Shown piece by piece: positions 1 to 64,000 of a stretch of 64,000 bases of DNA. The DNA is taken from contig JBNZDD010013707.1 in assembly GCA_050575255.1 (NCBI GenBank), positions 4,980,233 to 5,044,232 of the forward strand, written 5' to 3'. The position numbers were made by a program, and so were the translations under genes. The DNA is from Harriotta raleighana (Eukaryota). How positions within the stretch are numbered: the first letter of the stretch is position 1; each line of letters opens with the position of its first letter. The notes below the pieces were generated by a model that saw only the letters and a program-made list of their open reading frames with translations, ran no database searches and was not told the DNA's origin.

Positions 1-42
1 AGCTACAATGGGGGCACAAAATAAATAAGCTGTATGCCATAC

Positions 43-94
43 CTTTGGACTCATCCTGTTGTTCACTCAGAGCTTTTTCTTGGTTCTCTTTTTC
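43..94 (-). CDS. Duplicate of exon 6224-6275
   Basis: Identical 52-nt exon at offset 6181; the gene presumably continues left of the window. Confidence 0.6.
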
Positions 95-1509: not shown

Positions 1510-2460
1510 ACCAAACTGCACTGGCTCTCTGTCACAGAGCAGATTGACTTCAAGATCCTCACCCTTGTGTTTAAATTCATCCAATCCTTGACACTTCACG
1601 ACCTCTCTAACCTCCTCTCTCCTCACAGCAGTACCTGCTGCCTACACTGTCCAGCCTCCTCCTTGTTCCCTGAATCGTCCACTCCACCATCGGCGGCTGT
1701 GCTTTCAGCTACTATGTCCTGAAGGTTTGGAACTCCCTTCCTCAAACCCTTCGCCTCACCCCCTCCTTTCCCATCTTCAGTTTGCACCTAAAGAACTTTC
1801 TCTTCGGCTGTGCTTAGGTTCATCTTTCCCCTCCCCTTGGCTTGGCCTCAGGTCCCACCAATGTGAAGCGCTCCGAGATGCTGCCCAGTGTGGAAGGCAT
1901 TATGTAAATTCAATTTGTTGTTGTTATTGTCACAAGCTGCATTCCTCAGGGCTCTATCCTTGGTCCTCTCCTCTTTAATATTTACCTGATGCTGCTCAGT
2001 GATGTCATCCACAGATATGAGATTAACTTCCATATGTATTCAGATGAAAGCCAACTCTATCTCTCTGCCTCCACCCTCGATTATTCCAGGCCCAATGGTG
2101 TCCTGACCGATTACCTGTCAGACATGAAGCCCTGGATGAGCTACCCTGGCTCCACTGGCTTCCCACTACAAGATTCTTGTCCTCACTTTTAAAGCCCTTG
2201 ATTATCTTTTCACAGCCTTCTTTTGTGACCTTCTAAAACCTAACCAACCTACCCAATCCCTCTGCTCAACAGACATTGGCCTGCTTTACATTCCCTGCCC
2301 CTGCCACTACATCATCAATGGTCGGGCCTTCACACCTTCTGCCCCTCATGCCCCTCATTGTAACTCCATCTCAAAGTCCCTTCACTTTCCACCTTCCCTC
2401 GCCTTCTTCAAGGTCCTCTTAAGATCTTCCTCTTTGACCATTTGCTTTTGGTCATCTTCC
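1510..2460 (+). mobile_element. Degenerate L2 fragments (duplicate at ~7690-8640)
   Basis: LHWLSVTEQIDFKILTLVFK C-terminal motif, (ttg)n tail at ~1915-1930, and RT remnant PQGSILGP / FHMYSDESQLY. Confidence 0.85.
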
Positions 2461-2928
2461 CCACTCCTACAAATTTCATGATGAATTTTAAATACAATAA
2501 TAACCTTGTTCACTCAATTAATGCTTTGTTTCTTTAAAGTACAAATACGCCATTTGTTAGAAATAGAGTAAAGGGACATTAAGATGCAACATGTGGGTAA
2601 TAGAGAGAGATGTGAATTAAACTACTTGTGGAGACAGCAGAAGTGGATTATGTCAATAAATTCAACAAGAAATTGGATGGCTATTTGGGTGCTGAAGAAA
2701 TTGATTGAACGATGTAAGAGTGGTGATGTAGGTTTTAATGTATTTTGGGTTGAGTCAATAGTAAACACTAGCATGGGACATGCTGGTGTTTACTATTTCT
2801 GTACATTAATTCCTATATAATTTAGACAAATTATGGCCTAATCTACATAATTTTTAAATGTTAGTCAATTGAAAAAACTAATATTTATCTTTAGCACAAA
2901 TAATCTAATTTTATTTAAAGAGTTATAC

Positions 2929-3090
2929 CGATGTGTCTGAGGAATAATCTGATTTCATTTTCTCATTTTGCTCAAGTGCTTCATGAAGTTGACTTCTCAG
3001 TTCCTCCAATTGACTACTATGCAGTTTGTTCTGATAGTCCAGTAAAATCTTCTGCAAATCCAATTCCCGTTGACCTTTTTCCACGTCTTT
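2929..3090 (-). CDS. Duplicate of exon 9110-9271
   Basis: Identical 162-nt exon at offset 6181; probably redundant assembly copy. Confidence 0.65.
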
Positions 3091-3689
3091 CTGACAACAG
3101 AAACCAAATTAGCTAGTTACAAATGTACAAAACTTTTGGAGTAAGTGACCAAAACGTTTTTTTAACATTACATTAATATACAAGAGATTTTCCTTTGATG
3201 AGAAAATCACATTTAATGGATGCTGGGGATAACAATCTAATAATAATCTTTGCATTTGATACAACACCTTATCACATCATGGAAATATCTCAAAGCGCTT
3301 CACAGGATATTCTGTAAAGTGATGGGTATTGATGAATACATTTTAGCTGTGTGCAACTCAGATTAATTCAAGATGAGCAAATCCTGGGACAACAAGAAAC
3401 AATTACAACAAATTACATTTGTGTAATGCCTTTCCCATGCAATTGTTTCAAAATATGACATTAAACTAGAAAAATGCCAGAAAGAAACATTCCTCTCCAA
3501 TGTCGTTCCCATTGGTGAGCTCTGTGATGCTGGAATGCACATTCCACTTCCGCCTCTTAGCCTTCTACTCCTAATGAGGAGCTTTTATTCAACTGAATCT
3601 ACATAGAGCCCTGTTGTAACATGATAATTGGGGTCCATAAAATGATTGCCGGTCAGTATTACTGCATTTATTGTCCATGTTTACAGATA

Positions 3690-4160
3690 TCTCGTGCTCA
3701 ATTTAGACATCAGGTTCGATCCCCAGTTACCCTTCCTCCCCCACATCCAGTCCCTGACCAGCATTGCTTTCTTCCATCTCCGCCACATAGTCCATCTCCG
3801 TAAATACCTCACCCCAAAAGCTGCCGAAACCCTGTTCCATGCCTTTGTCACCTCTCAGCTGGACTACTCCAATAACCTCAGTACCAGTCTACACTCCTCC
3901 ACCATCCACAAAATTCAGCTAAAACTCCGCTGTCCACATTCTCATCCACACCTCACCTCTCCTCACAGCAGTATCCACACTACTGGTGTCCAGCCTCTTC
4001 CTTGTCCCTGAATCCTCCGCTCTACCATCGGTGGTCGTACATTCAGCCACTACACCCTGCTCCCCCTCCCTCTTGCTTGTCCTTAGGCTCCACATTATTA
4101 AGCATTCTGAGCTGCCTCCCAGCATGGAGGGTGCGGTACAAATGCAAGTTGTTGTTGTTG
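3690..4160 (+). mobile_element. Degenerate L2 3' fragment (duplicate ~9870-10355)
   Basis: AFFHLRHI..LRKYLTPKAAETLFHAFVTSQLDYSN motif and (gtt)n tail. Confidence 0.88.
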
Positions 4161-4469
4161 GCTTGTTTCAAACACTGGCCAGAATCCGAAAGCTACAAAT
4201 AATCAAATTCTGGGACTTCAAATTGTAACCAATATCACTTCCTACATGCAACAAATCTCAGGTGAATCACAGAATGACATGTTTTCGTAAATTAGTGTTT
4301 TTTTTAAATGTAATTCTTACACTGCCCCATTAAAAAAAATCATGAAAGATACCACATTTCTTAGAAACAGGCCACAGAATTCCATACACACCAAGACAGG
4401 ATAAGGATACAGGATAAGTGAATACTGGTTCAGGAATCTGAAGGGCAACTTTTGGGACAAATAGTATGA

Positions 4470-4990
4470 ACAAAAACAAAAAAATTATATTTGCATAGTG
4501 CCTTTCAAGTCAGGAGGACACTGGGAAATCAGTATTTCTGACTTGAGCTGGGATCCGGGAGGGTGGAGGACAGCGGGGAGGGAGGATGACTGAAGGTACG
4601 GTCATAGAGGAGGATCTTGAGATTGATCTTGAATGAGGCATGGGAGGGGGCAAGGTGGAGGGACTGTGGGTTGGAGTTCCAGAAGATGGGAGCAGAGTGG
4701 CTGAAGGCTCGCCTACAAATGGTAGGTCGGATGAGCAGGGGCGGATGTGTAGCAGGCAACAGAACGGCACGCAGTTCTGATGAATGGTCACGACCCGAAA
4801 CGTTGACTCATTTTTTTTGCTCCCTAGATGCTGCCTGATCTGCTGAGTGTTCCCAGCGATTTCTGTTTTTGTTCCATGGAGGAAGATGCTGTCAGCGCCC
4901 GAGGTATGGAGGCACTGACTGAAGCCAAGCAGCAGGGCCTTGGTCTTGTTGACATTGAACTGCAGGAAAAGAATGGTACCCTCAACTCAT
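4470..4990 (-). mobile_element. L2 3' fragment interrupted by a Penelope-like tail (~4775-4873)
   Basis: RAFSHSAPIFWNS.PQSL motif on minus; inserted cgacccgaaacgttgact...gatgctgcctgatctgctgagt...ccagc block resembles fish/shark Penelope terminal repeats. Confidence 0.65.
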
Positions 4991-6223
4991 TTTGGAGTCC
5001 TGTAGCTCAGTGGTTAGAGCACTTGCCTTAAAAGTGAAAGATCTGGGTTTGATTCAGGGTGAAATGTTGGGCAAGTTTCCTTACTCCACAGACCTAATAA
5101 TAATCCCTCAAACAAAAACAATAATAAAGTGTTCATTTCAATTCATTTGTGGGACACGGCTGTTTCATCGTGCTGCCACGTTTTGGCCACATATATGCAG
5201 TTAATTCATGNAAGATGTGAAAAGTGCTATATCAAATGCAAGGATTATTATTATTACATGTCAAAAGATTCTGTGGCAGATTCAAATGGAGCAACAAGTT
5301 TCACCCATTGCAGGACTTATACCTACACTGCTGCAGTAAATTCAGTATGACACAGGTTAATACTTAAAAAATTGTTCTGAATATCTCAGTCAAAAGGTGT
5401 GTGCAACACAGGAATGTATTCTGCAAAGAATCCTTGGGGATAAGTCCATCGTAAAGCAGCAGTGCCCTCTGCAGAAAAAGTACCATGAAGGTTTGATTAT
5501 GATGCATTTAGTTTTAAAATGTGCACGAAGAATAAATCACACAGAAAAAATAGGGTGGTGAAATATTAGCAGGTTCCCCAAAGTGAACGACTGTGCGGGA
5601 GGAGGAGTGTGGATAGTAGAAGATATGGACTCTTTTACACATATTGTATTGACTACCTTCACAAACACTTGTGTAAATGCCAATTCTGCTCTGATTCAGA
5701 CATTTGTAAAATAGTATTTTTCATCCATCATTTATTTCGACACTTTAATTCCTAAACATCTTGTGAGCTGTAGCATCTCAAGCATTTGCATATTTTGTGT
5801 CGAGACACGGAGCCAATTTGTGCATAGCAATGCCACATAAACAGCTATGAAGTGAATGATCAATTTTATGTGGGGGATTGTTACTTGAGACATCAGGAGA
5901 AACTCCCTTCTCTTTTCGAGCGATGCAATGGGATCTTTAATGTCCGCCTGAATAGGTGAACATGTCCTAGGTTTAAGGTCTCCTCTGAAGGTGGTCACCT
6001 CCGACAATGCAGCACATCTCTAGCATAGCTTCAGAGGTTCAGCTGAGACTACATGAGTTCAAAATCCTGACTTGTGGTTTGAAAACCATAATCTTCTGAC
6101 TCAGAGGCAACATTGCCAGATTTAAAACATGAGCAGCACTTAGATCACAGTCCAGTAGCTCAAACAATATTTGTTGGTTACAGCTACAATGGGGGCACAA
6201 AATAAATAAGCTGTATGCCATAC

Positions 6224-6275
6224 CTTTGGACTCATCCTGTTGTTCACTCAGAGCTTTTTCTTGGTTCTCTTTTTC
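6224..6275 (-). CDS. Coiled-coil gene exon (copy in right duplicate)
   Basis: 52 nt, tgatgtag/gtatgg, phase 0-1, EKENQEKALSEQQDESK. Confidence 0.72.
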
Positions 6276-9109
6276 CTACATCACAAGGAAACAAAACAAT
6301 TGGTAAACGTGACATACAATTAAACATTAACCAAAAAGATTTTGCGATTCAAAGCTCCGCCATCACAAACTACAATTACTGTGAATAAAATTAGTCGCAT
6401 TTCTCAGACTTTTATCAAAAAGGTGTAAAATATTTCTTATGTGCAGATTTTGTTGTAAGTGAATTTAAAATATCTAGTAATTAGGCTCAGAAAAGTACAT
6501 TCATATTTACAGGCCTTCTAACGTGTAGAATTTGGGTATTTATTTTTTTCTATTAAAAAAAACTGTCCAATTTCTGCTTAGGAATAAAAATGGCAATTGG
6601 GTAATTGTATACATTTTTGCATAAAGACTTTTTTTACTATGAATTGAAAGAGGATGTTTGAGATGTGATGAAATAAGATGTTTCAGAAACATTACTTTGA
6701 ATCTGTTAGGCTTTACCCCTAGTATTTATGCTGCTTAACAGTTACTCCGCCTGGTGGTGAAATAGAGAACAGCTTTGATAGGAATCAAGTGACAAACAGT
6801 AAGCTTTGCATTTCCCAAAGTAAAACAAGTTAAGAATGACAAACGATCATTCCAGTCTATGAGAATGTATTCTTCCAGTGACCTCTCTCATCATAAAATC
6901 TAATTATATTTTCAATAACTCAAATGTTCTAGGCCTTAACACTATTGAAAACAATTATCGCCTTTTGAATTCGTTTTTCTTCATCAAAAAAAACTTTCAC
7001 TCATTTACATTTTTTAGGCAGTGAGAATGTATTCCTAGCTGTTGATATTCACCGCAAATGTGTAAACACAGGACTGATTGCATTCATATCTTATAAACTA
7101 TGTTGGACAGAACGTATTCCAGTGCTCATTACATACACATAACGTCAATAATGTGCATATTTTGAGGATGTAGCTTACACAAAGTGATGTGCAGGTAGAT
7201 TAGATATAATTTTCATATGAATGAACCAGCCATAAATAGCAGTGAAAATCTTATGAAGTGACATACTGTATTATGAAGTCCATATCAATCAGGTCAATGG
7301 AAAAGCATTTTTTGGTAAACAGTATGATGGTTTTGCTTGGGTGAGGCATGGATTTTTACATGTTAATGCCAGGATTTGAAATAAATGATTTAATCATATT
7401 TATCCAACTGCTCACTTTGTGTAGAGAATGAAATAGTTTCCCCCTGGCTGGAGATAATGGTTACTGCAAACTGATTAATAGCAAATTAAGCTCACAGCTA
7501 AAATACTGACTATAATGTTCAATGGTTATCCTAGCATTAGACACTTATTGTACACTATCGATATTTAGGCCAAGTAATGAAGGTAATAATACTCCCAGAG
7601 TTACCTCTCTTACCTTTCCTAACATCCCTATATGTATCTGCCATCTGCTTCTCCTGCTAATCTGCACTAACAGGAAGGTCCATGCCTAGCACCAAACTGC
7701 ACTGGCTCTCTGTCACAGAGCAGATTGACTTCAAGATCCTCACCCTTGTGTTTAAATTCATCCAATCCTTGACACTTCACGACCTCTCTAACCTCCTCTC
7801 TCCTCACAGCAGTACCTGCTGCCTACACTGTCCAGCCTCCTCCTTGTTCCCTGAATCGTCCACTCCACCATCGGCGGCTGTGCTTTCAGCTACTATGTCC
7901 TGAAGGTTTGGAACTCCCTTCCTCAAACCCTTCGCCTCACCCCCTCCTTTCCCATCTTCAGTTTGCACCTAAAGAACTTTCTCTTCGGCTGTGCTTAGGT
8001 TCATCTTTCCCCTCCCCTTGGCTTGGCCTCAGGTCCCACCAATGTGAAGCGCTCCGAGATGCTGCCCAGTGTGGAAGGCATTATGTAAATTCAATTTGTT
8101 GTTGTTATTGTCACAAGCTGCATTCCTCAGGGCTCTATCCTTGGTCCTCTCCTCTTTAATATTTACCTGATGCTGCTCAGTGATGTCATCCACAGATATG
8201 AGATTAACTTCCATATGTATTCAGATGAAAGCCAACTCTATCTCTCTGCCTCCACCCTCGATTATTCCAGGCCCAATGGTGTCCTGACCGATTACCTGTC
8301 AGACATGAAGCCCTGGATGAGCTACCCTGGCTCCACTGGCTTCCCACTACAAGATTCTTGTCCTCACTTTTAAAGCCCTTGATTATCTTTTCACAGCCTT
8401 CTTTTGTGACCTTCTAAAACCTAACCAACCTACCCAATCCCTCTGCTCAACAGACATTGGCCTGCTTTACATTCCCTGCCCCTGCCACTACATCATCAAT
8501 GGTCGGGCCTTCACACCTTCTGCCCCTCATGCCCCTCATTGTAACTCCATCTCAAAGTCCCTTCACTTTCCACCTTCCCTCGCCTTCTTCAAGGTCCTCT
8601 TAAGATCTTCCTCTTTGACCATTTGCTTTTGGTCATCTTCCCCACTCCTACAAATTTCATGATGAATTTTAAATACAATAATAACCTTGTTCACTCAATT
8701 AATGCTTTGTTTCTTTAAAGTACATATACGCCATTTGTTAGAAATAGAGTAAAGGGACATTAAGATGCAACATGTGGGTAATAGAGAGAGGTGTGAATTA
8801 AACTACTTGTGGAGACAGCAGAAGTGGATTATGTCAATAAATTCGACAAGAAATTGGATGGCTATTTGGGTGCTGAAGAAATTGATTGAACGATGTAAGA
8901 GTGGTGATGTAGGTTTTAATGTATTTTTGGTTGAGTCAATAGTAAACACTAGCATGGGACATGCTGGTGTTTACTATTTCTGTACATTAATTCCTATATA
9001 ATTTAGACAAATTATGGCCTAATCTACATAATTTTTAAATGTTAGTCAATTGAAAAAACTAATATTTATCTTTAGCACAAATAATCTAATTTTATTTAAA
9101 GAGTTATAC

Positions 9110-9271
9110 CGATGTGTCTGAGGAATAATCTGATTTCATTTTCTCATTTTGCTCAAGTGCTTCATGAAGTTGACTTCTCAGTTCCTCCAATTGACTACTA
9201 TGCAGTTTGTTCTGATAGTCCAGTAAAATCTTCTGCAAATCCAATTCCCGTTGACCTTTTTCCACGTCTTT
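9110..9271 (-). CDS. Coiled-coil gene exon (copy in right duplicate)
   Basis: 162 nt, tgttgtcag/gtataa, phase 0-0, KDVEKGQRELDLQKILLDYQNKLHSSQLEELRSQLHEALEQNEKMKSDYSSDTS. Confidence 0.8.
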
Positions 9272-11186
9272 CTGACAACAGAAACCAAATTAGCTAGTTA
9301 CAAATGTACAAAACTTTTGGAGTAAGTGACCAAAACTTTTTTTTAACATTACATTAATATACAAGAGATTTTCCTTTGATGAGAAAATCACATTTAATGG
9401 ATGCTGGGGATAACAATCTAATAATAATCTTTGCATTTGATACAACACCTTATCACATCATGGAAATATCTCAAAGCGCTTCACAGGATATTCTGTAAAG
9501 TGATGGGTATTGATGAATACATCTTAGCTGTGTGCAACTCAGATTAATTCAAGATGAGCAAATCCTGGGATAACAAGAAACAATCACAACAAATTACATT
9601 TGTGTAATGCCTTTCCCATGCAATTGTTTCAAAATATGACATTAAACTAGAAAAATGCCAGAAAGAAACATTCCTCTCCAATGTCGTTCCCATTGGTGAG
9701 CGCCGTGATGCTGGAATGCACGTTCCACTTCCGCCTCTTAGCCTTCTACTCCTAATGAGGAGCTTTTATTCAACTGAATGTACATAGAGCCCTGTTGTAA
9801 CATGATAATTGGGGTCCATAAAATGATTGCCGGTCAGTATTACTGCATTTATTGTCCATGTTTACAGATATCTCGTGCTCAATTTAGACATCAGGTTCGA
9901 TCCCCAGTTACCCTTCCTCCCCCACATCCAGTCCCTGACCAGCATTGCTTTCTTCCATCTCCGCCACATAGTCCATCTCCGTAAATAGTCCATAGTCCAC
10001 CTCACCCCAAAAGCTGCCGAAACCCTGTTCCATGCCTTTGTCACCTCTCAGCTGGACTACTCCAATAACCTCAGTACCAGTCTACACTCCTCCACCATCC
10101 ACAAAATTCAGCTAAAACTCCGCTGTCCACATTCTCATCCACACCTCACCTCTCCTCACAGCAGTATCCACACTACTGGTGTCCAGCCTCTTCCTTGTCC
10201 CTGAATCCTCCGCTCTACCATCGGTGGTCGTACATTCAGCCACTACACCCTGCTCCCCCTCCCTCTTGCTTGTCCTTAGGCTCCACATTATTAAGCATTC
10301 TGAGCTGCCTCCCAGCATGGAGGGTGCGGTACAAATGCAAGTTGTTGTTGTTGGCTTGTTTCAAACACTGGCCAGAATCCGAAAGCTACAAATAATCAAA
10401 TTCTGGGACTTCAAATTGTAACCAATATCACTTCCTACATGCAACAAATCTCAGGTGAATCACAGAATGACATGTTTTCGTAAATTAGTGTTTTTTTTAA
10501 ATGTAATTCTTACACTGCCCCATTAAAAAAAATCATGAAAGATACCACATTTCTTAGAAACAGGCCACAGAATTCCATACACACCAAGACAGGATAAGGA
10601 TACAGGATAAGTGAATACTGGTTCAGGAATCTGAAGGGCAACTTTTGGGACAAATAGTATGAACAAAAACAAAAAAATTATATTTGCATAGTGCCTTTCA
10701 AGTCAGGAGGACACTGGGAAATCAGTATTTCTGACTTGAGCTGGGATCCGGGAGGGTGGAGGACAGCGGGGAGGGAGGATGACTGAAGGTACGGTCATAG
10801 AGGAGGATCTTGAGATTGATCTTGAATGAGGCATGGGAGGGGGCAAGGTGGAGGGACTGTGGGTTGGAGTTCCAGAAGATGGGAGCAGAGTGGCTGAAGG
10901 CTCGCCTACAAATGGTAGGTCGGATGAGCAGGGGCGGATGTGTAGCAGGCAACAGAACGGCACGCAGTTCTGATGAATGGTCACGACCCGAAACGTTGAC
11001 TCATTTTTTTTGCTCCCTAGATGCTGCCTGATCTGCTGAGTGTTCCCAGCGATTTCTGTTTTTGTTCCATGGAGGAAGATGCTGTCAGCGCCCGAGGTAT
11101 GGAGGCACTGACTGAAGCCAAGCAGCAGGGCCTTGGTCTTGTTGACATTGAACTGCAGGAAAAGAATGGTACCCTCAACTCATTTT

Positions 11187-11482
11187 GGAGTCCTGTAGCT
11201 CAGTGGTTAGAGCACTTGCCTTAAAAGTGAAAGATCTGGGTTTGATTCAGGGCGAAATGTTGGGCAAGTTTCCTTACTCCACAGACCTAATAATAATCCC
11301 TCAAACAAAAACAATAATAAAGTGTTCATTTCAATTCATTTGTGGGACACGGCTGTTTCATCGTGCTGCCACGTTTTGGCCACATATATGCAGTTAATTC
11401 ATGTTACAGTATATTCTGTGAAGTGCTTGAGATGTCTAGAAGATGTGAAAAGCACTATATCAAATGCAAGGATTATTATTAT
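11187..11482 (+). mobile_element. tRNA-derived SINE with Deu-like core and L2-like tail (duplicate 4994-5210)
   Basis: ggagtcctgtagctcagtggttagagc A box, degenerate B box, core, tail aaatgcaagg(att)n. Confidence 0.9.
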
Positions 11483-37361: not shown

Positions 37362-37699
37362 TAATAATAATAATAATAATAATCCTTGCATTTGATATAG
37401 CGCTTTTCACATCTTATCAACGTCTCAAAGCACTTCACAGAATATACTGTAAAGTGAATTGACTGTATATTTGTGGGCGGAACGCGGCAGCCAATTGCAC
37501 ACAGCAGTGTCCCACAAACAGTCATAGATTGAAATGACCAATTTTATTATTGTGGTTTTTTTGGAGGGATTATTATTAGGCATGTGGAGTAAGGAAACTT
37601 GCCCAAGGTTTCGCCCTGATCTGCCTGGATTCGAACACAGGTCTCATGCTTGTAAGGCATGTAAGGCGAGTGCTCTATCCACTGAGCCACAGGAGCTCC
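37362..37699 (-). mobile_element. tRNA-derived SINE (young)
   Basis: (taa)n tail, full body, ggattcgaac B box. Confidence 0.93.
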
Positions 37700-37717
37700 C
37701 ACAAAAGATACTAGGGA

Positions 37718-37930
37718 CATAGGAATAGGAATAGGCCATGCTGTCCCTCAAGCCTATTCCACCATTCTATTAGATCACTGCTGATCTGTACCTCAACTCC
37801 AATTACCCACCTCTGCCTCATATTACTTAATACCTATCAAAAATGTATCCACCTCAGTCTTGAAAATTTAAATGGATCTAGCATCCACAACCTTTTGGGT
37901 GAGAGAGTTCCAGATTTGGTGAAAAAATGC
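37718..37930 (-). mobile_element. CR1 3' end (duplicate ~40447-40660)
   Basis: ataggaataggaataggcc...aagcctattccaccattc...gatcactgctgatctgtacctcaactcc is typical of chondrichthyan CR1 3' UTR in reverse. Confidence 0.7.
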
Positions 37931-38334
37931 AAGGTGTTGGGATTCTTCCTACTTGGCTCCCATTAATCCTACAAGTCAACTTGGCAATGGCGACTGTGTA
38001 GTGTTACCTGGTTAAACTCTAGCAATACCATAGTCTGGGGTTCCGAAGCTTTGGCTTTGGCCAACCTGTAGCTAAACTTTTCAGGATTAGGTAAGCAAGG
38101 TGATCCTCTCCAGGGAGAGAGTGCAAAATTCCATACCAGAGAAATAAAGTCCATTCATTTGTGGAGCTCTCAGCATTTTGGCTTGTTTATTGTGATGAAA
38201 GGTTTCTATGCGTGTCAGACTCTTGGCTAACCAAACAAAAGCTAAATATATCACACTGCTAACAGATGACATGACTCAATATTGCACTCAGCTACTTTCT
38301 CTTTTTTCTTACCAAAAGATTGCCAGAGACCTTT

Positions 38335-38670
38335 TCACAACGATTTGATTGAAGTATTTAAAATAATGAAAGAGGGATCCATTCCAAGGGGCATGGCTTT
38401 CAAATCAGAGCCAATACAGTTAGAACTGAGATCAGAAAGCATTGCCACACACATAAGATTGTGAAGATGTGGAAATCACTGTCTCAGAAGGCTAGACAGG
38501 CAGAATCAATATTGATGATTGAAAGAGAAATAAATATTTGGGTTATAGCGTTATCAATGTGTGTGGTGAAAAGCAGAGGATTGGGACCAAGCCATCTGCC
38601 TAGAGCTAATAAATTACTGGAACAGGCTGGATGGGCTGTATGGCCTCTTTCTATTCCTATCTTAAAATAG
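38335..38670 (+). mobile_element. Degenerate CR1 3' fragment (duplicate ~41065-41400)
   Basis: DLIEVFKIMK and V.MW.SL motifs, then gatgggc...tggcct...ttcctat 3' end. Confidence 0.7.
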
Positions 38671-41600
38671 GTTTGAAGGACTCTGAGATACTATCCTGAG
38701 TGGAGGGTATTATATAAGTGCAAATAGTTGTAATTGTATTTATTTCCTATGTTTACCCTTTAAACACATTTTCACATACAGGACAGTGTTGCACATCTTA
38801 CACACGAAACATTTATTGTCAGTTAATCTTAAGAGATCTATCTTTCGTTATGAAGACATTCAAATACACTGTTAATCGCTCTAAAGCAAATAATAAAACT
38901 TTTTTTTTAAACAATAATCAACATCATCTACTCACTACAGTTGGTAAATTCTTCCAAAACAGTTGCAGTGTGCATCAAGACACGGGTTCCTTTTTCTTCA
39001 AAAGTAAAGTATTCAAATTAATCGGTACATTAAATTAATACAGTTTGTTCTTTTTACATCAACATGTTTTTTGTTAAAAAAAATAGTTACTACACCATCC
39101 TGACAACCACGTTGAATTCTTTCCTTTTGTTTTTCAACCGATCTGCCCACTGTGACTTCAGTCCTTCACACACAGAACCCGCTGCTCACTGTGTTGCTGC
39201 AGAAGCGGGTGTAACTATCAGTGTGCAGAGGGTGCAGTGTGTTGTGTGGCGCTTCAAGCCTGCCAACACGGCTGGATCGGCCTGACCTGTGTCGCCTGGT
39301 TACCAGTAAGTGAAATGCAATAGATGCTTCTCCCCCCACCTCCCACCCCCCACCAGCCCTGCGATGACTCTGGGTGTGAAATGAATCAAAACGTGAGAAA
39401 GACAAGAGAGAGAGAGAGAGAGAGAAAAACACGCACACAAATCAACCTGCAACAAACTCTTGTTAGAAAGCGTGGACAAAGTACTGTAGCTGAGGTCACT
39501 GTACACGTAACAACAGCCTGATTCAAAAGCTCAAGAATGGCTTTTGCCAAGTCCTTGTGTTTGGGGTTTGGTGCCTCTTTTGCAATCCTCGGTTGTTACT
39601 TGATAGTTTATTGGTTTTATTAGTTTGTAGAAAATTTTGTACCACATACCTTAAACCCAGGTCTCTCACTCGCCTTGCAACTGAGAGACCTGGGTTTAAT
39701 TCCAGGCAGGGCAAAATTGTGGTCAAGTTTCCTTCTTGCACATGATTGAAAATAATCCCTTAAAAAAATGCCACAATAATAAATTGGTCATTTCAATCCA
39801 CAACTGGGACATTGCTGTGTGCAATTCGCTGTCATGTTTCGCCCACAAATGTACATTCAATTCACTTTGTGGCATATTCTGTGAAGCACTTTGAAACGTC
39901 TAGAGCAGTGGTTCTCAACCAGGGGAACATGTACCCCAGGGGGAACAAAATTACTTCCAGGGGTACAGGTGGTGGTACATTGATTTATTTAGCTCCTATT
40001 TAGCATTTTATAGCCTTCCAAATTGTATATTAAATTGTTATTCCCCTCATTTTGTATGTGCTAGTTCTTTTGTTATATAAGAAAAGCTTGGTCATAAAAT
40101 GCAAGTGGAATGAGGGGGTGGTGTGTGTGTGTTAGTTTATGTGCTCCTGTGGCTTAGTGGTTAGAGCACTCACCTCACAAGCATGAGACCTGTGTTCGAA
40201 TCCAGGCAAATCAGGGCGAAACCTTGGGCAAGTTTCCTTACTCCACATGCCTAATAATAATCCCTCCAAAAAAANNNNNNNNNNTTTTTTTGGAGGGATT
40301 ATTATTAGGCATGTGGAGTAAGGAAACTTGCCCAAGGTTTCGCCCTGATCTGCCTGGATTCGAACACAGGTCTCATGCTTGTAAGGCATGTAAGGCGAGT
40401 GCTCTATCCACTGAGCCACAGGAGCTCCCACAAAAGATACTAGGGACATAGGAATAGGAATAGGCCATGCTGTCCCTCAAGCCTATTCCACCATTCTATT
40501 AGATCACTGCTGATCTGTACCTCAACTCCAATTACCCACCTCTGCCTCATATTACTTAATACCTATCAAAAATGTATCCACCTCAGTCTTGAAAATTTAA
40601 ATGGATCTAGCATCCACAACCTTTTGGGTGAGAGAGTTCCAGATTTGGTGAAAAAATGCAAGGTGTTGGGATTCTTCCTACTTGGCTCCCATTAATCCTA
40701 CAAGTCAACTTGGCAATGGCGACTGTGTAGTGTTACCTGGTTAAACTCTAGCAATACCATAGTCTGGGGTTCCGAAGCTTTGGCTTTGGCCAACCTGTAG
40801 CTAAACTTTTCAGGATTAGGTAAGCAAGGTGATCCTCTCCAGGGAGAGAGTGCAAAATTCCATACCAGAGAAATAAAGTCCATTCATTTGTGGAGCTCTC
40901 AGCATTTTGGCTTGTTTATTGTGATGAAAGGTTTCTATGCGTGTCAGACTCTTGGCTAACCAAACAAAAGCTAAATATATCACACTGCTAACAGATGACA
41001 TGACTCAATATTGCACTCAGCTACTTTCTCTTTTTTCTTACCAAAAGATTGCCAGAGACCTTTTCACAACGATTTGATTGAAGTATTTAAAATAATGAAA
41101 GAGGGATCCATTCCAAGGGGCATGGCTTTCAAATCAGAGCCAATACAGTTAGAACTGAGATCAGAAAGCATTGCCACACACATAAGATTGTGAAGATGTG
41201 GAAATCACTGTCTCAGAAGGCTAGACAGGCAGAATCAATATTGATGATTGAAAGAGAAATAAATATTTGGGTTATAGCGTTATCAATGTGTGTGGTGAAA
41301 AGCAGAGGATTGGGACCAAGCCATCTGCCTAGAGCTAATAAATTACTGGAACAGGCTGGATGGGCTGTATGGCCTCTTTCTATTCCTATCTTAAAATAGG
41401 TTTGAAGGACTCTGAGATACTATCCTGAGTGGAGGGTATTATATAAGTGCAAATAGTTGTAATTGTATTTATTTCCTATGTTTACCCTTTAAACACATTT
41501 TCACATACAGGACAGTGTTGCACATCTTACACACGAAACATTTATTGTCAGTTAATCTTAAGAGATCTATCTTTCGTTATGAAGACATTCAAATACACTG

Positions 41601-42634
41601 TTAATCGCTCTAAAGCAAATAATAAAACTTTTTTTTTAAACAATAATCAACATCATCTACTCACTACAGTTGGTAAATTCTTCCAAAACAGTTGCAGTGT
41701 GCATCAAGACACGGGTTCCTTTTTCTTCAAAAGTAAAGTATTCAAATTAATCGGTACATTAAATTAATACAGTTTGTTCTTTTTACATCAACATGTTTTT
41801 TGTTAAAAAAAATAGTTACTACACCATCCTGACAACCACGTTGAATTCTTTCCTTTTGTTTTTCAACCGATCTGCCCACTGTGACTTCAGTCCTTCACAC
41901 ACAGAACCCGCTGCTCACTGTGTTGCTGCAGAAGCGGGTGTAACTATCAGTGTGCAGAGGGTGCAGTGTGTTGTGTGGCGCTTCAAGCCTGCCAACACGG
42001 CTGGATCGGCCTGACCTGTGTCGCCTGGTTACCAGTAAGTGAAATGCAATAGATGCTTCTCCCCCCACCTCCCACCCCCCACCAGCCCTGCGATGACTCT
42101 GGGTGTGAAATGAATCAAAACGTGAGAAAGACAAGAGAGAGAGAGAGAGAGAGAAAAACACGCACACAAATCAACCTGCAACAAACTCTTGTTAGAAAGC
42201 GTGGACAAAGTACTGTAGCTGAGGTCACTGTACACGTAACAACAGCCTGATTCAAAAGCTCAAGAATGGCTTTTGCCAAGTCCTTGTGTTTGGGGTTTGG
42301 TGCCTCTTTTGCAATCCTCGGTTGTTACTTGATAGTTTATTGGTTTTATTAGTTTGTAGAAAATTTTGTACCACATACCTTAAACCCAGGTCTCTCACTC
42401 GCCTTGCAACTGAGAGACCTGGGTTTAATTCCAGGCAGGGCAAAATTGTGGTCAAGTTTCCTTCTTGCACATGATTGAAAATAATCCCTTAAAAAAATGC
42501 CACAATAATAAATTGGTCATTTCAATCCACAACTGGGACATTGCTGTGTGCAATTCGCTGTCATGTTTCGCCCACAAATGTACATTCAATTCACTTTGTG
42601 GCATATTCTGTGAAGCACTTTGAAACGTCTAGAG

Positions 42635-43272
42635 CAGTGGTTCTCAACCAGGGGAACATGTACCCCAGGGGGAACAAAATTACTTCCAGGGGTACAGGTG
42701 GTGGTACATTGATTTATTTAGCTCCTATTTAGCATTTTATAGCCTTCCAAATTGTATATTAAATTGTTATTCCCCTCATTTTGTATGTGCTAGTTCTTTT
42801 GTTATATAAGAAAAGCTTGGTCATAAAATGCAAGTGGAATGAGGGGGTGGTGTGTGTGTGTTAGTTTATGTGCTCCTGTGGCTTAGTGGTTAGAGCACTC
42901 ACCTCACAAGCATGAGACCTGTGTTCGAATCCAGGCAAATCAGGGCGAAACCTTGGGCAAGTTTCCTTACTCCACATGCCTAATAATAATCCCTCCAAAA
43001 AAAACACAATAATAAAATTGGTCATTTCAATCTATGACTGTTTGTGGGACACTGCTGTGCGCAATTGGCTGCCGCGTTCCGCCCACAAATATACAGTCAA
43101 TTCACTTTACAGTATATTCTGTGAAGCACTTTGGGACGTCGATAAGATGTGAAAACCGCTATATCAAATGCAAGGATTATTATATTATTATTATTATGTG
43201 GTTGGGTGGGAGTACACGATAATGTTGAAAATTAACAAAGGGTACATTACTGAAAAAGATTGAGAACCACTG
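42635..43272. mobile_element. hAT (Charlie/MER5-like) non-autonomous element
   Basis: TIRs cagtggttctcaa / ttgagaaccactg, perfect 8-bp TSD gtctagag at 42627-42634 and 43273-43280; left half repeated at 39906-40274. Confidence 0.92.
42873..43197 (+). mobile_element. tRNA-derived SINE (young) nested in hAT MITE
   Basis: Full body; candidate TSD ttatgtg at 42866-42872 and 43194-43200. Confidence 0.92.
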
Positions 43273-52340: not shown

Positions 52341-52437
52341 TTATAGGAAGAATTCTTGTAACTCTGCGTCCTCCTTGCTTTTATTGAATAATTTCTTCTG
52401 TACGGGATCCTTGAAGTCATCATTAAAGTGGTCGTGC
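52341..52437 (-). CDS. SNCAIP: SNCAIP terminal coding exon, two reading frames
   Basis: Acceptor tttgtcttctgtttatag; frame 0 gives ARPL* (stop ends 52423); frame +1 gives HDHFNDDFKDPVQKKLFNKSKEDAELQEFFL*, resembling human synphilin-1A ...EPESKELFL*. Confidence 0.8.
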
Positions 52438-53778
52438 CTATAAACAGAAGACAAATTAAAATGTAGTTGGATATTTAGATCATAAATTCACAGGTTACAG
52501 AGCTTAATTTGTTTTCTAAAACACACTTGTGACAGAAACAATGAAAGACAAAAGTGCTAATAAACTTTCTGTGTGGAATTTGGAGACTGAAATATTATAG
52601 TTAAGGTATCCTAACTATAGTTGGGGTATATAATAGGGTATCTTCCATTATCTTCCATCTTCTGCTTTATGCCTTCACTCCCTAAAAATCTGGAATTTGA
52701 TGAATGTTAATCTAACACAAGGATGACATTGATTTCCGGAGTCAAAGGTGCTAATGCTCAATGAGACTGTGAATGGGACAAATGTGGTTTTCTAATTCAC
52801 ATTGTTATTGGGTTATTTTTTCCTATCCCATTTCAAAAAAAAATTCTATTTTACTATGAACAAACATTTTTGCTACTGCCAGTATAATCTTACTATGAAA
52901 AGTAATTTACTTTAGGGAATATAAGGGAGAAAACAAATCAATTAATCTTTTGGCTCCATAAATAATATAGATATTTTAAAAATTTGAAATTAATATATTT
53001 TTCAGATGAAATCAAGCAGTTGAAACGATGTTTTGAAATGATCAAATCATTCATTTAAACCAATTTTAATTTGGTAAAAGCATGTGATGAATTATATTAT
53101 ATGATCAGAAAGTATTTATTATTCAATAGTGATCAAGTTCTGTGTAGAAATTTTGCTTAAAACTTAAAATATAATTTGAATTTGGGCAACTTATCACAAA
53201 ACAAGAGCTGTAATGTAGCAGTAATATGCAGTTTGTCCTCTGATAAATAATGATTGTAAATCTGATGAATGTAACATAGGTGACAAAAGTTATGTTTTGA
53301 AACAAATATTTGCATTTTAAATGCAATTCTAAGCATAGATCGGAAACTGTTTTATTATTGCTTGATAGCTAATCATTTTTCTTTCAAAATATAGAGAAAA
53401 ACTTAGTTAGTTGAAAATCAAACACATGTTTTGAATGGGCTACTGCGACAATGAACTGACAATGTGTCCAGCTACTGTGGCAATGAATTGTCTTCTGATA
53501 CTTAATAAGTTTGTATTTATGTTAATCAAAGTTACTATTTGTTTCACTTCAATAGCATGACCCAACACTGTTAGAAAAAAAAACTGTGAAAGATAACTTA
53601 AAGTAGTTATTGCTTTCAAACTATTCTAATCTAAATTGTTAATAAGATGAATAAGAATGGACTAGGAATGTTCTACACTTGTTAGATGATGTCAGAGGAG
53701 GTTAATACTGAATATCTACACACTAACTTCAATGTGCAATAATTTGTGAATTTTTTCTTTAGGGGCATTCAAACATAC

Positions 53779-53843
53779 CATGCTTTGTTTCCCTGAATCA
53801 GTAAGCATGCAGGACGAGGAGGAGTGCTGCTGTTGCAAAGATC
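53779..53843 (-). CDS. SNCAIP: Putative SNCAIP frame-shifting cassette exon (synphilin-1A-type)
   Basis: 65-nt exon, cttcttctag acceptor and gtatg donor, phase 0-2, DLCNSSTPPRPACLLIQGNKA(W); same position and phase as the cassette giving the human synphilin-1A C-terminus. Confidence 0.7.
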
Positions 53844-55032
53844 CTAGAAGAAGCGAATGCTTATTCAGATCCACCAGATCAGAGAAAAGCCCCAGTCACC
53901 AAAGGGGAACACATGCAGTTTTTAAAAGAAGACTTTGTTCATGTGGATTGACTATTTTTTTTTAAAAAGAGGAAAACATAAGAAATTTAAGTGATTCACA
54001 TTAATTCCCCTTTCAGAAATTGAATAAACAAGTGGTTTCCTCCTTATTCACTGAGCAGTCGTGAGAACACAACAACACTTTGAGTTATTTAACTTGCAGC
54101 TGTACAAATACCATCTTATCCTCTCTTTCCTTGTCCAGCAGCTGTTGTATAGATACCTGTTTCACTAGAATTTTTGTCCTTTGAGCAATTAAAACTGCAG
54201 TGCTCCAAATGGCCCTTTGATAAAAATTAAAAGTAAAGTCACCATCAGAAGTTAATTACAAAAATAAATCACAAACCCCAACTTAGTATTGTTGATATAC
54301 AAAGCCTGTTCTCTTCCAGTTTAAGTAATCCAAGGATAATTCATTCAGAAATGATTAGGTCTATCTGCCATCAATCTGACCTTCACTACATTAGACTTAA
54401 ATTTCTTAAACTAAATTCTAGCAATATTAGAGTTGGGATTTAAATACAGATGAGGTATGTCAGTCCTAATATTGTCAGCCCCTGAATAATGGCTGAATTC
54501 CGGTGAAATTATGTTAGGGATCAAATATTTCAATACTGTAAGTGATTCTTTAGTATTTTAATATGCAGTATTCTTTTGAAGATCCAGGACAGACAAGATA
54601 GTCCAATGACCTTCTTCTGTGCTGTAAAGTTCTGTATCTGGTGATACAATTTTGACCTTATTGTATTAAGCATTCTTTCATATTGTATTGGGAGGTTGGG
54701 GGGCGGAGGGGGGCGAAGCTATACTGTGCTGATAGAGTTTTTTGGCAAATGGAAATCTAAAGCAAATGTTTTAACAGAAAAAACATAATTTCAAACAGAA
54801 AAAACACAAAACAAGATATGAAAAGCACCATATATAAAATATATATATAAAAAAACACAGATTGATAGATGATAGGTACATTTTCACATAGGGTCGTGCA
54901 ACTTTAAATAACTGATTTTGTTACCGACCCCATAGTGAACTCATTTCTTTGTAAAGAAACATAGCAGTGCTTTCCTGATGAAAAAATATTATCTATATCC
55001 AATTGTTCCTAATAAGCAAACACTGTAGAATA

Positions 55033-55712
55033 CAGTAAAACCTTGTTTATCTGGTACCCAACCGAATGGCATACTCAACCAACCAGTATCTCCCAATACA
55101 ATTCACTATTCCAGCAACTGGATCTCATACCGTAGCCATCTGGGACACTCTCGGCATGCTCACTTTGTGCATGCGCGCAATGAGTGCGCAGATAGAGCAC
55201 ATACGGCTTGCTGCATGTGGCGAAAATTGCTGCTGTTATCTGCTGGCGTATAGTGGCGGAGGCATGGGAGTTAGCAATAAGTTGACTGGAGACTACTTAA
55301 TACTTAAATAAAACAGAAGTATGTTTCATAAATAAATGTATACCTATTACCATTACTTTCATTGATAATTAATGATATGAATTTTTAGTATTAACATTAG
55401 CTTATCAAAAGTTACTGGAGGGCGCTCATCTGAAGGCTTGCCTAGGGCGCCAAATACCCTTGCACCATTCCTGCTTACCGGACCCTGAAATGCCTTTTTA
55501 CCAATCATTTTACCGAGTGTGCTGGAATGCTTTATTGATAAGTATCCATACAATATTCTGTTATTATTTAATCTATTATTAATATGGTATGTATTAAAAT
55601 GTTAATTTGGGGGGGGGGGGATTTTCAGCAACTTGCCATATGAATATCCGCCATATTTGATGAATCGGCACCGGTCAGGTCTTGAGGGTGCCGGATAACA
55701 AAGGTTTTACTG
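55033..55712. mobile_element. Tc1/mariner (Tigger/pogo-like) MITE
   Basis: ta|cagtaaaaccttgtttatctgg ... ccggataacaaaggttttactg|ta. Confidence 0.87.
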
Positions 55713-57140
55713 TATACAGATACAGTAATTAAAAGAAGAGCAAAAATTTTAATTAGGAATTTAATGCATTTTAAATAATTTTTAATGTGTGGTACATGTA
55801 AGAAGCACTTGCTACTTATATGTACTGCACATTAGCATTGCTGGATTGTTGATCAACAACAACACAATTATGTTTGTAGTGCCTTTTTGGAGGAGTTGGA
55901 CAAGAAGGGAGTTTGCGTCGTTGACCCTGGATGTTATGAACGCGTGTATGAACGTGGTTCTACAGTGTATGCTTCAGTAGGAGGAATTAGTTTAATATTT
56001 ATGTCAGCACTGCGATGTTTTGGTCTTGCACAAATCCGCAAAATGTCATGACATTGTAAGATCATAAAGAAAAAATGCAAATAAAAGTTTTGCCAGAATT
56101 CAAAATTCCATTCAAATAATAAACAAAATCAAACATCAAACACAGCTAAATGTTAGCCAAAAGATGTGAAGAACTCAGCAGTAAAACAGTGTTCTGGTGA
56201 AATGGTTATCATTTGATTGTTGTTCTTGTATTAATAATGAACTAGAGGGAAAAGGGATTGCGATGAATGAAGTTCTGCAACAAAATTAATTTTCTGTGGC
56301 TTGGAAATAAAGTAAATTCATCAATTTCAATAGCACAGAACTAAAGCAAGAAATAATCTGCATCCAAGTAAAAGGATTTAAAAAAATTAGTTAAAAAGAT
56401 TAATGTTATAGAAATGGCACGCATTTACTCTTTTTACAACGAGCGAAGTTGGCTACTGAGTAAAGCTTCCTCAACGTTGCTCAAAATGTCTTGAATGTCA
56501 ACCTCAGAAGAACAGAGGCATGAAGGTGTCCATTTCTTACCTCAATTTATTTCTCAGAGAAAATGTAGCCAGTGAGACACATGGGTCTTCAAAAGCTAAG
56601 GTTTCTGAATGTTTTGTGTATTCCATACAAAAAGCCCTTTGAGACATCTCAAAGATGTGATAAGGCGCTGTATCAAATGTAAGGATTATTATTATATTCT
56701 CAATAATAGTAGCAGTTTAAATGTGGAACATCAATCTTGGAACCATTCACCTGTTACTCATCTACCCTATACCATTTTTCTATTGCTAAAATTGTTAAAT
56801 AATATCATAACTAAATAAATAACATATTCTTTGTAATATACACACATACGATTTTTTTAAATTTTGATGTATGGGGACAAATTTGTTCTGTTGCATATCA
56901 AGTTAACATTATGTGATGAATATCACAAAGAACATGTTATCAAACACTGCAAAATTGCACCTCTATAGCTTTGTGTTTTACATGGGCATTAAAACCTTTT
57001 ATAAAGCACAGTACCAGAATATGCTTAAGATTATTCATTTATATTTCTTCACAATAAATCTACACAAAATAATAATTGGTACTGATTTTAAAGGCTAATT
57101 TAATTTAAATTATATGTAATAGCTTTTATACCACACTCAC

Positions 57141-58176
57141 TGTCTTGGTATTAACTTTTGTGGGAGTTAGAAGACTCGCTTTTGAACCTCCAGGTTTCTT
57201 TCCTATGGAATTCACTGGTAAATTAGGAGTGGATGTCATGATTAAATGAATGGCTTGTGAGTTATTGTTGTTCTGGTTACTGTTAATAGGTTCCACTGGC
57301 GATCGAAAATGTCCAACATAGCGGTTCCATTGGTCACCCATTTCTATACTATATGGAAACATTGCTTCACTTTCTGTGCCCTTCCCGTTATCTAATTCAA
57401 TTACTGTTTGCTCAATTTCCACCACGGGCTCCTCAAAGGTCACTCTTAGCTTTAAATTCTGGGAAGTTCTACTTTTTGAAGATGGTGACTTAAGAGCACT
57501 TTTAGGACTGTTTGTAGTTTTCTGTGTAGCACTGTCAGTATAAGGCAGAGGTTGTTCTTCAGTAGACTGTGTCCTGACAGGACTTCTTATCTGATGCTGA
57601 CAATCATAGCTTTCAGCAGTAGGGGAACAGCTTTGCTCGTCTGATGAACCAGAGCTTTTAGTGGCAAAAGGAAACATTCTGCCTACTGCTGAAGTGTGCT
57701 TTTTAATCATCAAGTGCAATTTTTCAGTGCATTCCTCTTTTTCAACAATGGGCTGTGGCCGTGGCTTGTCAACTTTTTTAATGGGAGAATTCTTCTGGTC
57801 TTCATTAAAATGGGAGTCAGTGTCTGACTCACTAGAGGACCTCTGAGAATATCTCAGTCTGCACAGTTTCAGTTCCCTTTTGTCTCTCAGGACCTTCCTT
57901 GTGGACCCTGCTACAACACTTGCCTCCTGCCCCTCCTGAAATTCCAAAGAAAGTTTTTCTTGCGTGGAGACATTTCCAGAAATCTCTTCTCCCAGGAGCT
58001 GTCGAAGAATTTTATCTGCTTCTTCGCCTTTTTGTTTCAGCGTGCCTCTCGTGACGATCTTTGACTTTCTATCGGTGCTGTAGGTTGCTGCTCCCCCATT
58101 TGGATTCCCACCAGCCATCTTTTGATCCCGCAACACATGAGCTGGTTTCTTACCGGTCTCTGGCGATAAAGAGGAA
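57141..58176 (-). CDS. SNCAIP: Synphilin-1 large C-terminal exon
   Basis: 1036-nt exon within ORF 57126..58214; acceptor ...acaaccag, donor gtgagt; motifs DKILRQLLG.EIS.NV.TQEKLSLEFQ, KRELKL.RLR, RPQPIVE, SPKSALKSPSSK.RTSQNLKLRVTFEEPVV, NQNNNN. Confidence 0.96.
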
Positions 58177-61370: not shown

Positions 61371-61466
61371 CTTGGAGATTGAGAATCTGATCCTTCTGCT
61401 GGTGTTGCCTGGGCTTGTAACAAATGCTGAAGTTGGTTTTGCAAAGTAATTCTCTCCGATGTTTGC
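61371..61466 (-). CDS. SNCAIP: Synphilin-1 exon (coiled-coil end)
   Basis: 96-nt exon, gcag/gtac boundaries, phase 2-2, QTSERITLQNQLQHLLQAQATPAEGSDSQSP, matching human QTVERVTLQNQLQQFLEAQ...; joins flanking exons in frame. Confidence 0.93.
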
Positions 61467-62804: not shown

Positions 62805-62974
62805 TCTTTTAGCTGTTTTGTTAACTTTACCACTTGTGATGCCAGCGACATGCAGGTTTCGACAACTACCAGGTAGCGTGAGCAGGTGGTATGTCCAAGC
62901 CGCTCGGCACTCTGAGAAGGCTTCTCTCCAGCCTGATTCTGTACGGTAACATTTGCTCCGTATTCCACCAATGT
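62805..62974 (-). CDS. SNCAIP: Synphilin-1 exon (ankyrin repeat into coiled coil)
   Basis: AG/GT-bounded 170-nt exon translating TLVEYGANVTVQNQAGEKPSQSAERLGHTTCSRYLVVVETCMSLASQVVKLTKQLK(E), nearly identical to human synphilin-1 as I recall it. Confidence 0.96.
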
Positions 62975-64000
62975 CTAAACAAGAACATTTGAATAAAAAT
63001 CAGGGCGAACAACAGCAGAAATAATTCTTGTGTATAAAAAACATTAAGAAAAAATATATCGAGAAACAAAAAGGGGGGAATTGGAAGAGTAAGTCTTCTT
63101 TATTGGTTTTAAAAAAAACATCCTCTAATTTGATTCTTTTGAGCCAAAAGAAAATTTTATAGCAAGAAAACATATTGAACACTCTGAAAAATGTTGTGCA
63201 AAATACATAATTAATCAATAAAGTATTACTGTTTTAAAAAAAAGTAGCTAAAATGATATGAGGTTTACATCGTATTTTGTCTCGAAAGCAAAATGTATAA
63301 TTGTGATTTTATTAAATAGCTAATACAGTACTGTATTTTGGTTTTATGTCGATTCCACCCTCACATGGTCTCCTCCACTACGGTGAATAATTGAGGTTCT
63401 ATTGTATTGGATTATGATGTACTGTCAAATAAATAACATACGGATAATATACATTCATATTTATATCAAGCCAAAAATGTGGTGTGATTAGTGTAGGAGC
63501 TTTTACATGAATCAGAAAAGTACCTGAAGACAACTTAGATGACCATGTTGGGAAGCAACATGAGCTGCACTGTTGCCGAACTGGTCAACTTCATCCAAAG
63601 AAATCCCCTGTTCCTGCATATACTGTAGAAGCCACAGGAGTGTTTTTTCCTAATTTAAAGACCGCATCAACAATTTTAGAACAGAAATGCGTAAAGTGCT
63701 AAGAATCACAGTCGTTTCCTACTCCATGAGAACGTAGCAGTAGAAAAGATTGAACAAATTTTATAAAAATCTATCAAAATGGATTCTTAAAACTTTTCCA
63801 TAATAAAATCTAACAATATATTCCTTGGAGATGCAAAAACAACAACAAATTATATTTGTATAGTGCTGTTCATGTCAGGAGGATGTCCCATGCAGTAAGA
63901 AGAACCTACAGTTCAGAACTCTGCAAATATTTTCAGGTGTTGGCTATTTGACATATTGTAACAATGCATACTTAAACGTAAAATATTTAGGAGATAACTT

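Follow-up and report, generated by a model that had tools for sequence, protein, structure and literature searches.

The 3′ end of SNCAIP, the gene for synphilin-1, lies on the minus strand of a 64,000-nucleotide stretch of the genome of the chimaera Harriotta raleighana (GenBank assembly GCA_050575255.1, contig JBNZDD010013707.1, positions 4,980,233 to 5,044,232), which we refer to as the window. Here the inclusion of a small cassette exon would switch the end of the protein into a second reading frame and give it a tail with an ancient E-F-F-L terminus. We find that this tail is real, and that it is older and more patchily distributed than was supposed in the initial annotation, a note made from the letters of the window alone. 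On the whole, we lean towards a reading in which the terminus is a class II PDZ tag toggled by splicing.

The gene combines ankyrin repeats with the PF16700 alpha-synuclein-binding coil (scored on the Callorhinchus milii protein, the corresponding exons being present at the Harriotta locus), has synphilin-1 as its best match and is found as a single copy in the 1.1-Gb genome, which together mark it as the SNCAIP orthologue. The product of its large exon is 95% identical to C. milii synphilin-1 and 63-79% identical to the shark and ray proteins. This penultimate coding exon (58176-57141; 1036 nt, or 3n+1) is entered in phase 2, left in phase 0 and covered by contigs from all four of the runs described below. 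Spliced directly to the acceptor of the last exon at 52437, it continues in frame 0 to A-R-P-L-stop (52423..52437), the same end as that of C. milii model XP_042201621.1; the initial annotation had placed both splice sites exactly. Inclusion of the cassette (53843-53779; 65 nt, or 3n+2; acceptor CTTCTTCTAG, donor GTATGT) moves the last exon into its +1 frame, which runs for 31 residues to a stop at 52343-52341 (52341..52436), and translation of the spliced window sequence yields a 53-residue tail, as had been described. The tail closes with E-L-Q-E-F-F-L (52344..52364), which on its conservation and on a motif class from the literature is a predicted class II PDZ-type ligand.

When the intron was scanned simply for AG/GT pairs, 14 candidate exons emerged. 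The cassette shares the highest donor score (7 of 9) with two of the others, and it alone among the 14 matches a known protein. We also searched the window, cut into 3377 six-frame pieces, with a profile of 48 bony-vertebrate tails that contains no chimaera row. The +1 tail frame was the sole match, at E 2.8e-4, with the runner-up at 1.8; the spliced tail scored 21.9 bits, and none of 2000 shuffles exceeded 7.7. The match is not due to chance, since the profile finds only that frame and the tail outscores every shuffle. The 48 rows had been chosen by their end motif, which makes the profile circular at the end positions, and the motif count given below was therefore repeated without that filter. 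In a check for a repeat origin, no copies of the cassette or the last exon were found elsewhere in the window.

Conservation and age of the tail

To cover jawed vertebrates, we took the top 120 from each of two sets of matches (284 and 461) together with their cluster members, dropped 5 anchorless rows and collected the distinct tails of 47-56 residues that do not begin with V, irrespective of how they end; the resulting set is mammal-heavy and its members are not independent. E-[LFV]-F-L closes 89 of the 90 distinct inclusion-length tails, the sole outlier being a read-through of the cassette, and the longer E-x-x-E-[LFV]-F-L closes 87, in good agreement with the E-x-x-E-(L/F)-F-L motif first proposed. 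The set spans chimaera, bichir, reedfish, sturgeon, paddlefish, gar, bowfin, lungfish, caecilian, frog, reptiles, birds, platypus, marsupials and placentals, and 14 hand-picked species, ranging from chimaera to gorilla, have models of both the skip and the inclusion form. With the end shared by chimaera, bony-fish, tetrapod and lamprey models, the +1 tail is, as had been argued, no mammalian oddity. The human tail end, as given in the initial annotation, is confirmed by the supplement of PMC7392665, which lists human and mouse SNCAIP +1 ends, reached there by skipping the 3n+1 large exon. The two chimaera forms are not new, as both are already present in public C. milii gene models.

In the 30 aligned inclusion proteins, lamprey included, positions 0, -1 and -3 are invariant and position -6 is shared by 29. 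In the same alignment, the conservation score is 0.53 for the cassette and 0.40 for the middle of the tail, compared with 0.62 for the disordered N-terminus, and by these measures constraint is confined to the last ~9 residues. The proposal that the tail is under selection thus stands clearly for its end and weakly for the remainder. The description of the switch as dual-frame likewise needs to be narrowed: two frames are indeed read, but their overlap amounts to 4 codons here and to 1 in most amniote and ray-finned models, and the short-frame end is variable (A, H, T, I, AQPL, ARPL, ARTPQ). Read-through of the cassette donor gives W/R/Q-Y-V ends in paddlefish, sturgeon, marmoset and rodent models, and would do likewise at the GTATGT donor of the window; since these ends recur, the phase and donor of the cassette exon are likely, judging from protein, to be orthologous. 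As a separate observation, the third frame of the last exon is also open for >30 codons in the window, and duck, bearded dragon and paddlefish models appear to use it, with no conserved end.

A profile search of 1.84 billion representative proteins returned lamprey synphilin. Three Lampetra models end in E-A-Q-E-F-F-L, and the lamprey proteins are sister to those of jawed vertebrates in the tree (98/99); no skip form was seen among the lamprey models, in which only the long end is present. Because the lamprey models share the terminal motif, the tail, though not yet the switch, can be said at the level of gene models to predate jawed vertebrates. The view of the tail as an ancient jawed-vertebrate feature is therefore right as to antiquity, yet the tail is older than that and patchy.

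Beyond the vertebrates, seven hand-picked full-length invertebrate relatives that group in one clade with the vertebrate proteins (two hemichordates, a crinoid, a sea urchin and three further proteins, representing at most three lineages) end in [FY]-[LF], compared with 0 of 96 unrelated ankyrin proteins. The ending is missing from a shorter urchin model (P0225), two fragments and P0334, which were left out of the seven, and from 9 sister-clade proteins. Homology of the whole tail to the invertebrate ends was considered and found unsupported (hhalign probability 0.2-0.3%); a test against the invertebrate tails gave P<0.05 for 0 of 18 vertebrate tails with a deuterostome profile and for 2 of 18 with an all-invertebrate profile. 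Since at most three lineages are involved and whole-tail homology is not significant, we treat a possible deuterostome ancestry of the aromatic-L end only as a lead. Fifteen of 16 synphilin-like proteins from invertebrates (P0216-P0347) also have a W-Y-[ED]-x-S-acidic motif, located ~15-45 residues before their C-terminal end; it resembles the vertebrate A-W-H-[DN] at the junction of cassette and last exon, a likeness for which homology is not significant. Within the large exon (about 57520-57420), a disordered region holds S-P-K-S-A-L-K-S-P and K-L-R-V-T-F, both practically unchanged between lamprey and mammals. The R-V-T-F, which we take to be a PP1-docking-type motif, is present also in protein P0238.

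Transcripts, a possible third end, and gaps in sharks, rays and teleosts

Contigs from four runs of one study (X1-X4), with no RNA label on record, cover the locus in a related chimaera. They join five exons, differ from the window in ~3% of exon letters and carry a 9-nt insertion; because the exons are joined without introns and are ~3% diverged, we regard the contigs as spliced RNA of that chimaera. The initial annotation had named three junctions to look for. One of them, 57141>52437, in which the last exon directly follows the large one, is present in X2 and X3, that is, in two of the four runs, and the skip isoform is thus transcribed in the related chimaera. Contigs of X1 and X4 end 29 letters beyond the end of the large exon. 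The two inclusion junctions (57141>53843 and 53779>52437) are not among the joints listed (15 of 866 joints, 32 pieces), whose rows are crowded by repeats, and for this reason inclusion in chimaeras rests on a C. milii model; for Harriotta, we infer it from that model together with conservation. Depth in the bin holding the cassette was dropped as evidence for inclusion, the 451-nt bin containing low-complexity matches. In C. milii, inclusion (XP_007897520.1), skipping (XP_042201621.1) and read-through (A0A4W3J5F0) are all modelled, in automatic predictions that carry no comment on conservation or function. A word search of proteins with the tail alone gave 2 candidates, neither of which scored; because isoforms are hidden inside clusters, this says little. 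We further note an AATAAA at 52385-52380, within the +1 coding frame and 40 nt past the stop of the skip form; use of this signal would suit the skip form while truncating the inclusion form before its stop. X2 and X3 contigs continue beyond it, to about 50957.

The large exon may also have a third end. Read-through of its 5′ splice site (GTGAGT; 57126..57140) gives V-S-V-V-stop, in which V-S is forced by the donor and V-stop is not; x-x-x-V-stop follows only 1 of the 54 GTRAGT sites of the window, namely this one. V-S-[AV]-V ends are found in C. milii, coelacanth, bichir and paddlefish models, and TATAAA (57130) and ATTAAA (57104) are located behind the read-through end. V-S-V-V is a possible third C-terminus, and S-x-V is the pattern of class I PDZ ligands (PMC2891790). 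No RNA support for this end was seen in the chimaera contigs listed. Among 11 teleost-type representatives (3 named, 8 assigned by look), 9 end in S-x-V, and we infer that teleost ends correspond to the read-through form minus the donor codon.

The counts for sharks and rays, as for teleosts, are of gene models and not of genomes, the 36 shark and ray models representing 20 species by their names. The initial annotation was to be refuted by a lack of +1-frame conservation in other chondrichthyans; the tail is found in 0 of these 36 models, which counts against it in part. Of the 32 that reach the end of the large exon, 28 read on into the intron and the other 4 join the last exon in frame 0. 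Eleven have M, L or D in place of the V that a GT donor would encode, a replacement that suggests loss of the donor in several shark and ray lineages. In models of Scyliorhinus canicula (P0007 and P0129), the last exon appears to be reached from a donor three codons on, the original one being lost.

A proposed ligand controlled by splicing, and its rivals

From these observations, we hypothesize that a class II PDZ-type ligand is gained or lost through splicing. Inclusion of the 65-nt cassette would move the last exon into the second frame ending in E-F-F-L; the ~45 residues before the motif would act as a loose spacer; and the free C-terminal E-[LFV]-F-L would dock in a PDZ domain of the CASK/MPP/Tiam/syntenin type, thereby tying synphilin, a scaffold with ankyrin repeats and a PP1 motif, to a membrane or synaptic complex. 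The parts of this scheme are not equally secure. That the splice switch is conserved we consider very probable. That the terminal residues are a binding motif is only slightly less so; conservation is limited to the carboxyl end with its fixed stop, which argues for a terminal ligand, and four to five terminal positions that do not vary from lamprey to human point to a specific partner. That this partner is a PDZ domain is a rather closer call, which we judge somewhat better than even. The class II pattern (hydrophobic residues at -2 and 0, a free C-terminus and E at -3) is found in 89 of the 90 tails. In the cited literature, which also defines the ligand classes (PMC2891790), class II ligands have a hydrophobic residue at -2 and often E at -3, as in EFYA and EYYV (PMC2133028).

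Both TGCATG sites of the 4703-nt intron are at the cassette, one 74 nt upstream of its acceptor (53912..53917) and one inside it (53811-53806), with a rate of 0.27 per kb in the window; this observation is post hoc, six motifs having been scanned. We take TGCATG to be an RBFOX-type element. By the RBFOX position rule, the two sites would repress the cassette, and such elements would tune its inclusion, a component of the scheme that we consider less likely than not. As both stops are in the last exon, neither isoform should trigger decay under the rule described in PMC7392665.

Several findings weigh against a splice-controlled PDZ ligand. The listed joints hold no inclusion junction, and the tail occurs in 0 of 36 shark and ray models and in 0 of 11 teleost-type representatives, from which it would be dispensable in large clades if the gene models are correct; one hagfish model (isoform X2) also lacks it and ends otherwise. 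Between the two chimaeras (with XP_007897520.1 for C. milii), tail identity is 44/53, made up of 18/22 in the cassette and 26/31 in the last exon, and falls below the 95% of the large exon. It is borderline over a neutral simulation, with P of 0.055 at 88% nucleotide identity and 0.008 at 85%, where 87-88% is the identity seen in last-exon/3′UTR pieces. The invariant F at -1 and the near-invariant E at -6 exceed the needs of a minimal PDZ motif, and we found no paper that links synphilin to a PDZ partner via its tail.

Among the alternatives, the one that fares best, though we consider it improbable, is that the switch is real and E-x-x-E-[LFV]-F-L forms a short helix, either for a non-PDZ partner (TPR, FERM or similar) or for folding onto synphilin's own ankyrin/coiled-coil region. 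With its glutamates at i and i+3 and its invariant F-L, the motif would be compatible with a helix face, and AlphaFold2 draws the tail as a helix. However, confidence in the AlphaFold2 model is restricted to the ankyrin/coil region, the helix having a pLDDT of 37-53; a structure atlas search with the chicken tail gave no usable match and a PDB search with the tail a chance match only; and invariance at the carboxyl end, with the stop fixed, favours a pocket that binds the carboxylate. Set against synphilin's own ankyrin/coil region, the tail scored 0.01, which speaks for neither side.

Two further alternatives are each decidedly unlikely in our estimation. The tail could mainly govern stability or aggregation, as a degron or anti-degron end, instead of location: frameshifted 3′UTR-encoded ends often reduce stability (PMC7392665) and reviews call synphilin-1A aggregation-prone. 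The effect in PMC7392665, however, is tied there to proline-rich, poorly conserved tails, while the synphilin tail is proline-poor and conserved at its end, and the loss of about 394 N-terminal residues in 1A is another possible cause of its phenotype. Alternatively, the chimaera cassette could be a decaying relic, rarely or never included, as seemingly in sharks and rays, where none of the 36 models is of the inclusion form. The contig joints listed show only the skip form, the newer C. milii RefSeq model is of that form, and conservation of the tail from chimaera to chimaera is borderline; but in both chimaeras the splice phases remain canonical, the 53 codons stay open, the stop is shared and the terminal motif is complete, and the older C. 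milii model has the cassette. Finally, a near-constitutive cassette, with the short end a splicing leak devoid of a role, would account for the unconserved short-end sequence and for lampreys showing only the long end, but is highly implausible given that 2 of 4 runs assembled the skip form, which is also modelled throughout jawed vertebrates and is the human reference isoform.

Taking the three ends together, one could go further than a splice-controlled class II ligand and suppose that the so-called 1A end is the ancestral C-terminus of synphilin and a PDZ ligand of deuterostome age, given the aromatic-L ends of hemichordate and echinoderm orthologues, and that vertebrates use a three-way 3′ switch: inclusion of the cassette gives a class II ligand, skipping it gives the 919-residue reference form without a ligand, and reading through the intron, which teleosts fixed by donor loss, gives a class I S-x-V. 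We offer this as a speculation whose chances are well short of even; if true, the normal function of synphilin would hinge on a PDZ partner beyond the reach of the reference isoform. Synphilin-1 binds alpha-synuclein and parkin, and its normal role is described as unknown in PMC4468357. The long tail has so far been regarded as a quirk of the aggregation-prone isoform; work on the 919-residue form, which includes most Parkinson's studies, omits it, and zebrafish-type models may be without it.

Elsewhere in the window, also on the minus strand, we located three upstream SNCAIP exons: one of 96 nt that ends in phase 2 (61371..61466; contigs and frame analysis), one in the ankyrin/coiled-coil region (62805..62974) and one in the ankyrin region (63524..63649), the latter two from contigs and sequence. 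Spliced directly from 61371, the last exon would likewise be entered in the +1 frame, by the route tabulated for human and mouse SNCAIP in PMC7392665. On the same strand, open frames at 36907-36581 and 29551-29243 resemble exons of a downstream gene; Pfam and PDB searches with them gave no match. Two near-perfect tandem duplications, 1-5210 / 6182-11403 (99.5% over 5.2 kb) and 37556-40274 / 40285-43003 (100% over 2.7 kb), are likely to be assembly artefacts or very recent copies.

Synphilin-1A and other known systems

Reviews describe the skip form as the human reference isoform, and synphilin-1A as a product with a different start, two exons lost and an extra exon added, which lacks about 394 N-terminal residues and is aggregation-prone and neurotoxic on overexpression (PMC4573652, PMC2671999); a pig variant resembling 1A has been described in silico (PMC4468357). 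One hallmark of 1A, a frame-shifting extra exon that leads to a long unique C-terminus, is present in Harriotta at the level of DNA and gene models. The other, an alternative-frame start joined to the ankyrin exons after a two-exon skip, is not: at the junction of the 73-nt exon, which lies ~18 kb past the end of the window, the +1 frame hits a TAG, whereas it continues without a stop in the mammal models P0051, P0057, P0091 and P0120. The closure concerns that exon route, and other starts or donors are possible. Because the alternative N-terminal frame is closed by the TAG, the chimaera form should be read as carrying the 1A tail and not as isoform 1A, the tail probably being a module of full-length synphilin, the form in which most models have it. 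The equivalence to synphilin-1A drawn at first consequently extends to the tail and not to the N-terminal half, and aggregation-proneness is not transferable.

Human SNCAIP has the same arrangement of a small extra exon before the last exon, with a short end upon skipping and ~50 residues upon inclusion, the same terminal motif and the same 3n+1 large exon; it differs from Harriotta, where the cassette is 65 nt, the skip end 4 residues and the 1A N-terminal frame closed. In the models of C. milii, a different chimaera species, all three Harriotta ends are represented, and the tail is identical at the 44 of 53 positions given above. Like the class II ligands of syndecan (EFYA) and neurexin (EYYV), which bind CASK, p55 and Tiam1 (PMC2133028), the synphilin end has E at -3, a hydrophobic residue at -2 and at the last position, and a free terminus; unlike them, it is a predicted ligand, belongs to a cytosolic scaffold and adds the invariant F at -1 and the E at -6.

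We found no literature on the evolution of the synphilin tail, most subscription journals being outside our coverage, and SNCAIP is unnamed in the main texts of the papers on dual-coding C-termini (bioRxiv 10.64898/2026.05.28.727796; PMC7392665; PMC13247117), though it may appear in the tables of the preprint. The preprint gives figures of 53 dual-coding regions and 82 genes, the regions being of jawed-vertebrate age and enriched in brain genes. As in the cases of these papers, SNCAIP has a penultimate exon of non-triplet length, carries its two stops in the last exon, is expressed in brain and is conserved to jawed vertebrates; its overlap of 1-5 codons, however, places it nearer to their class of alternative C-terminal length. 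Ancient frame-switched C-termini in brain genes are thus a class already known, of which the synphilin tail is a well-supported new case.

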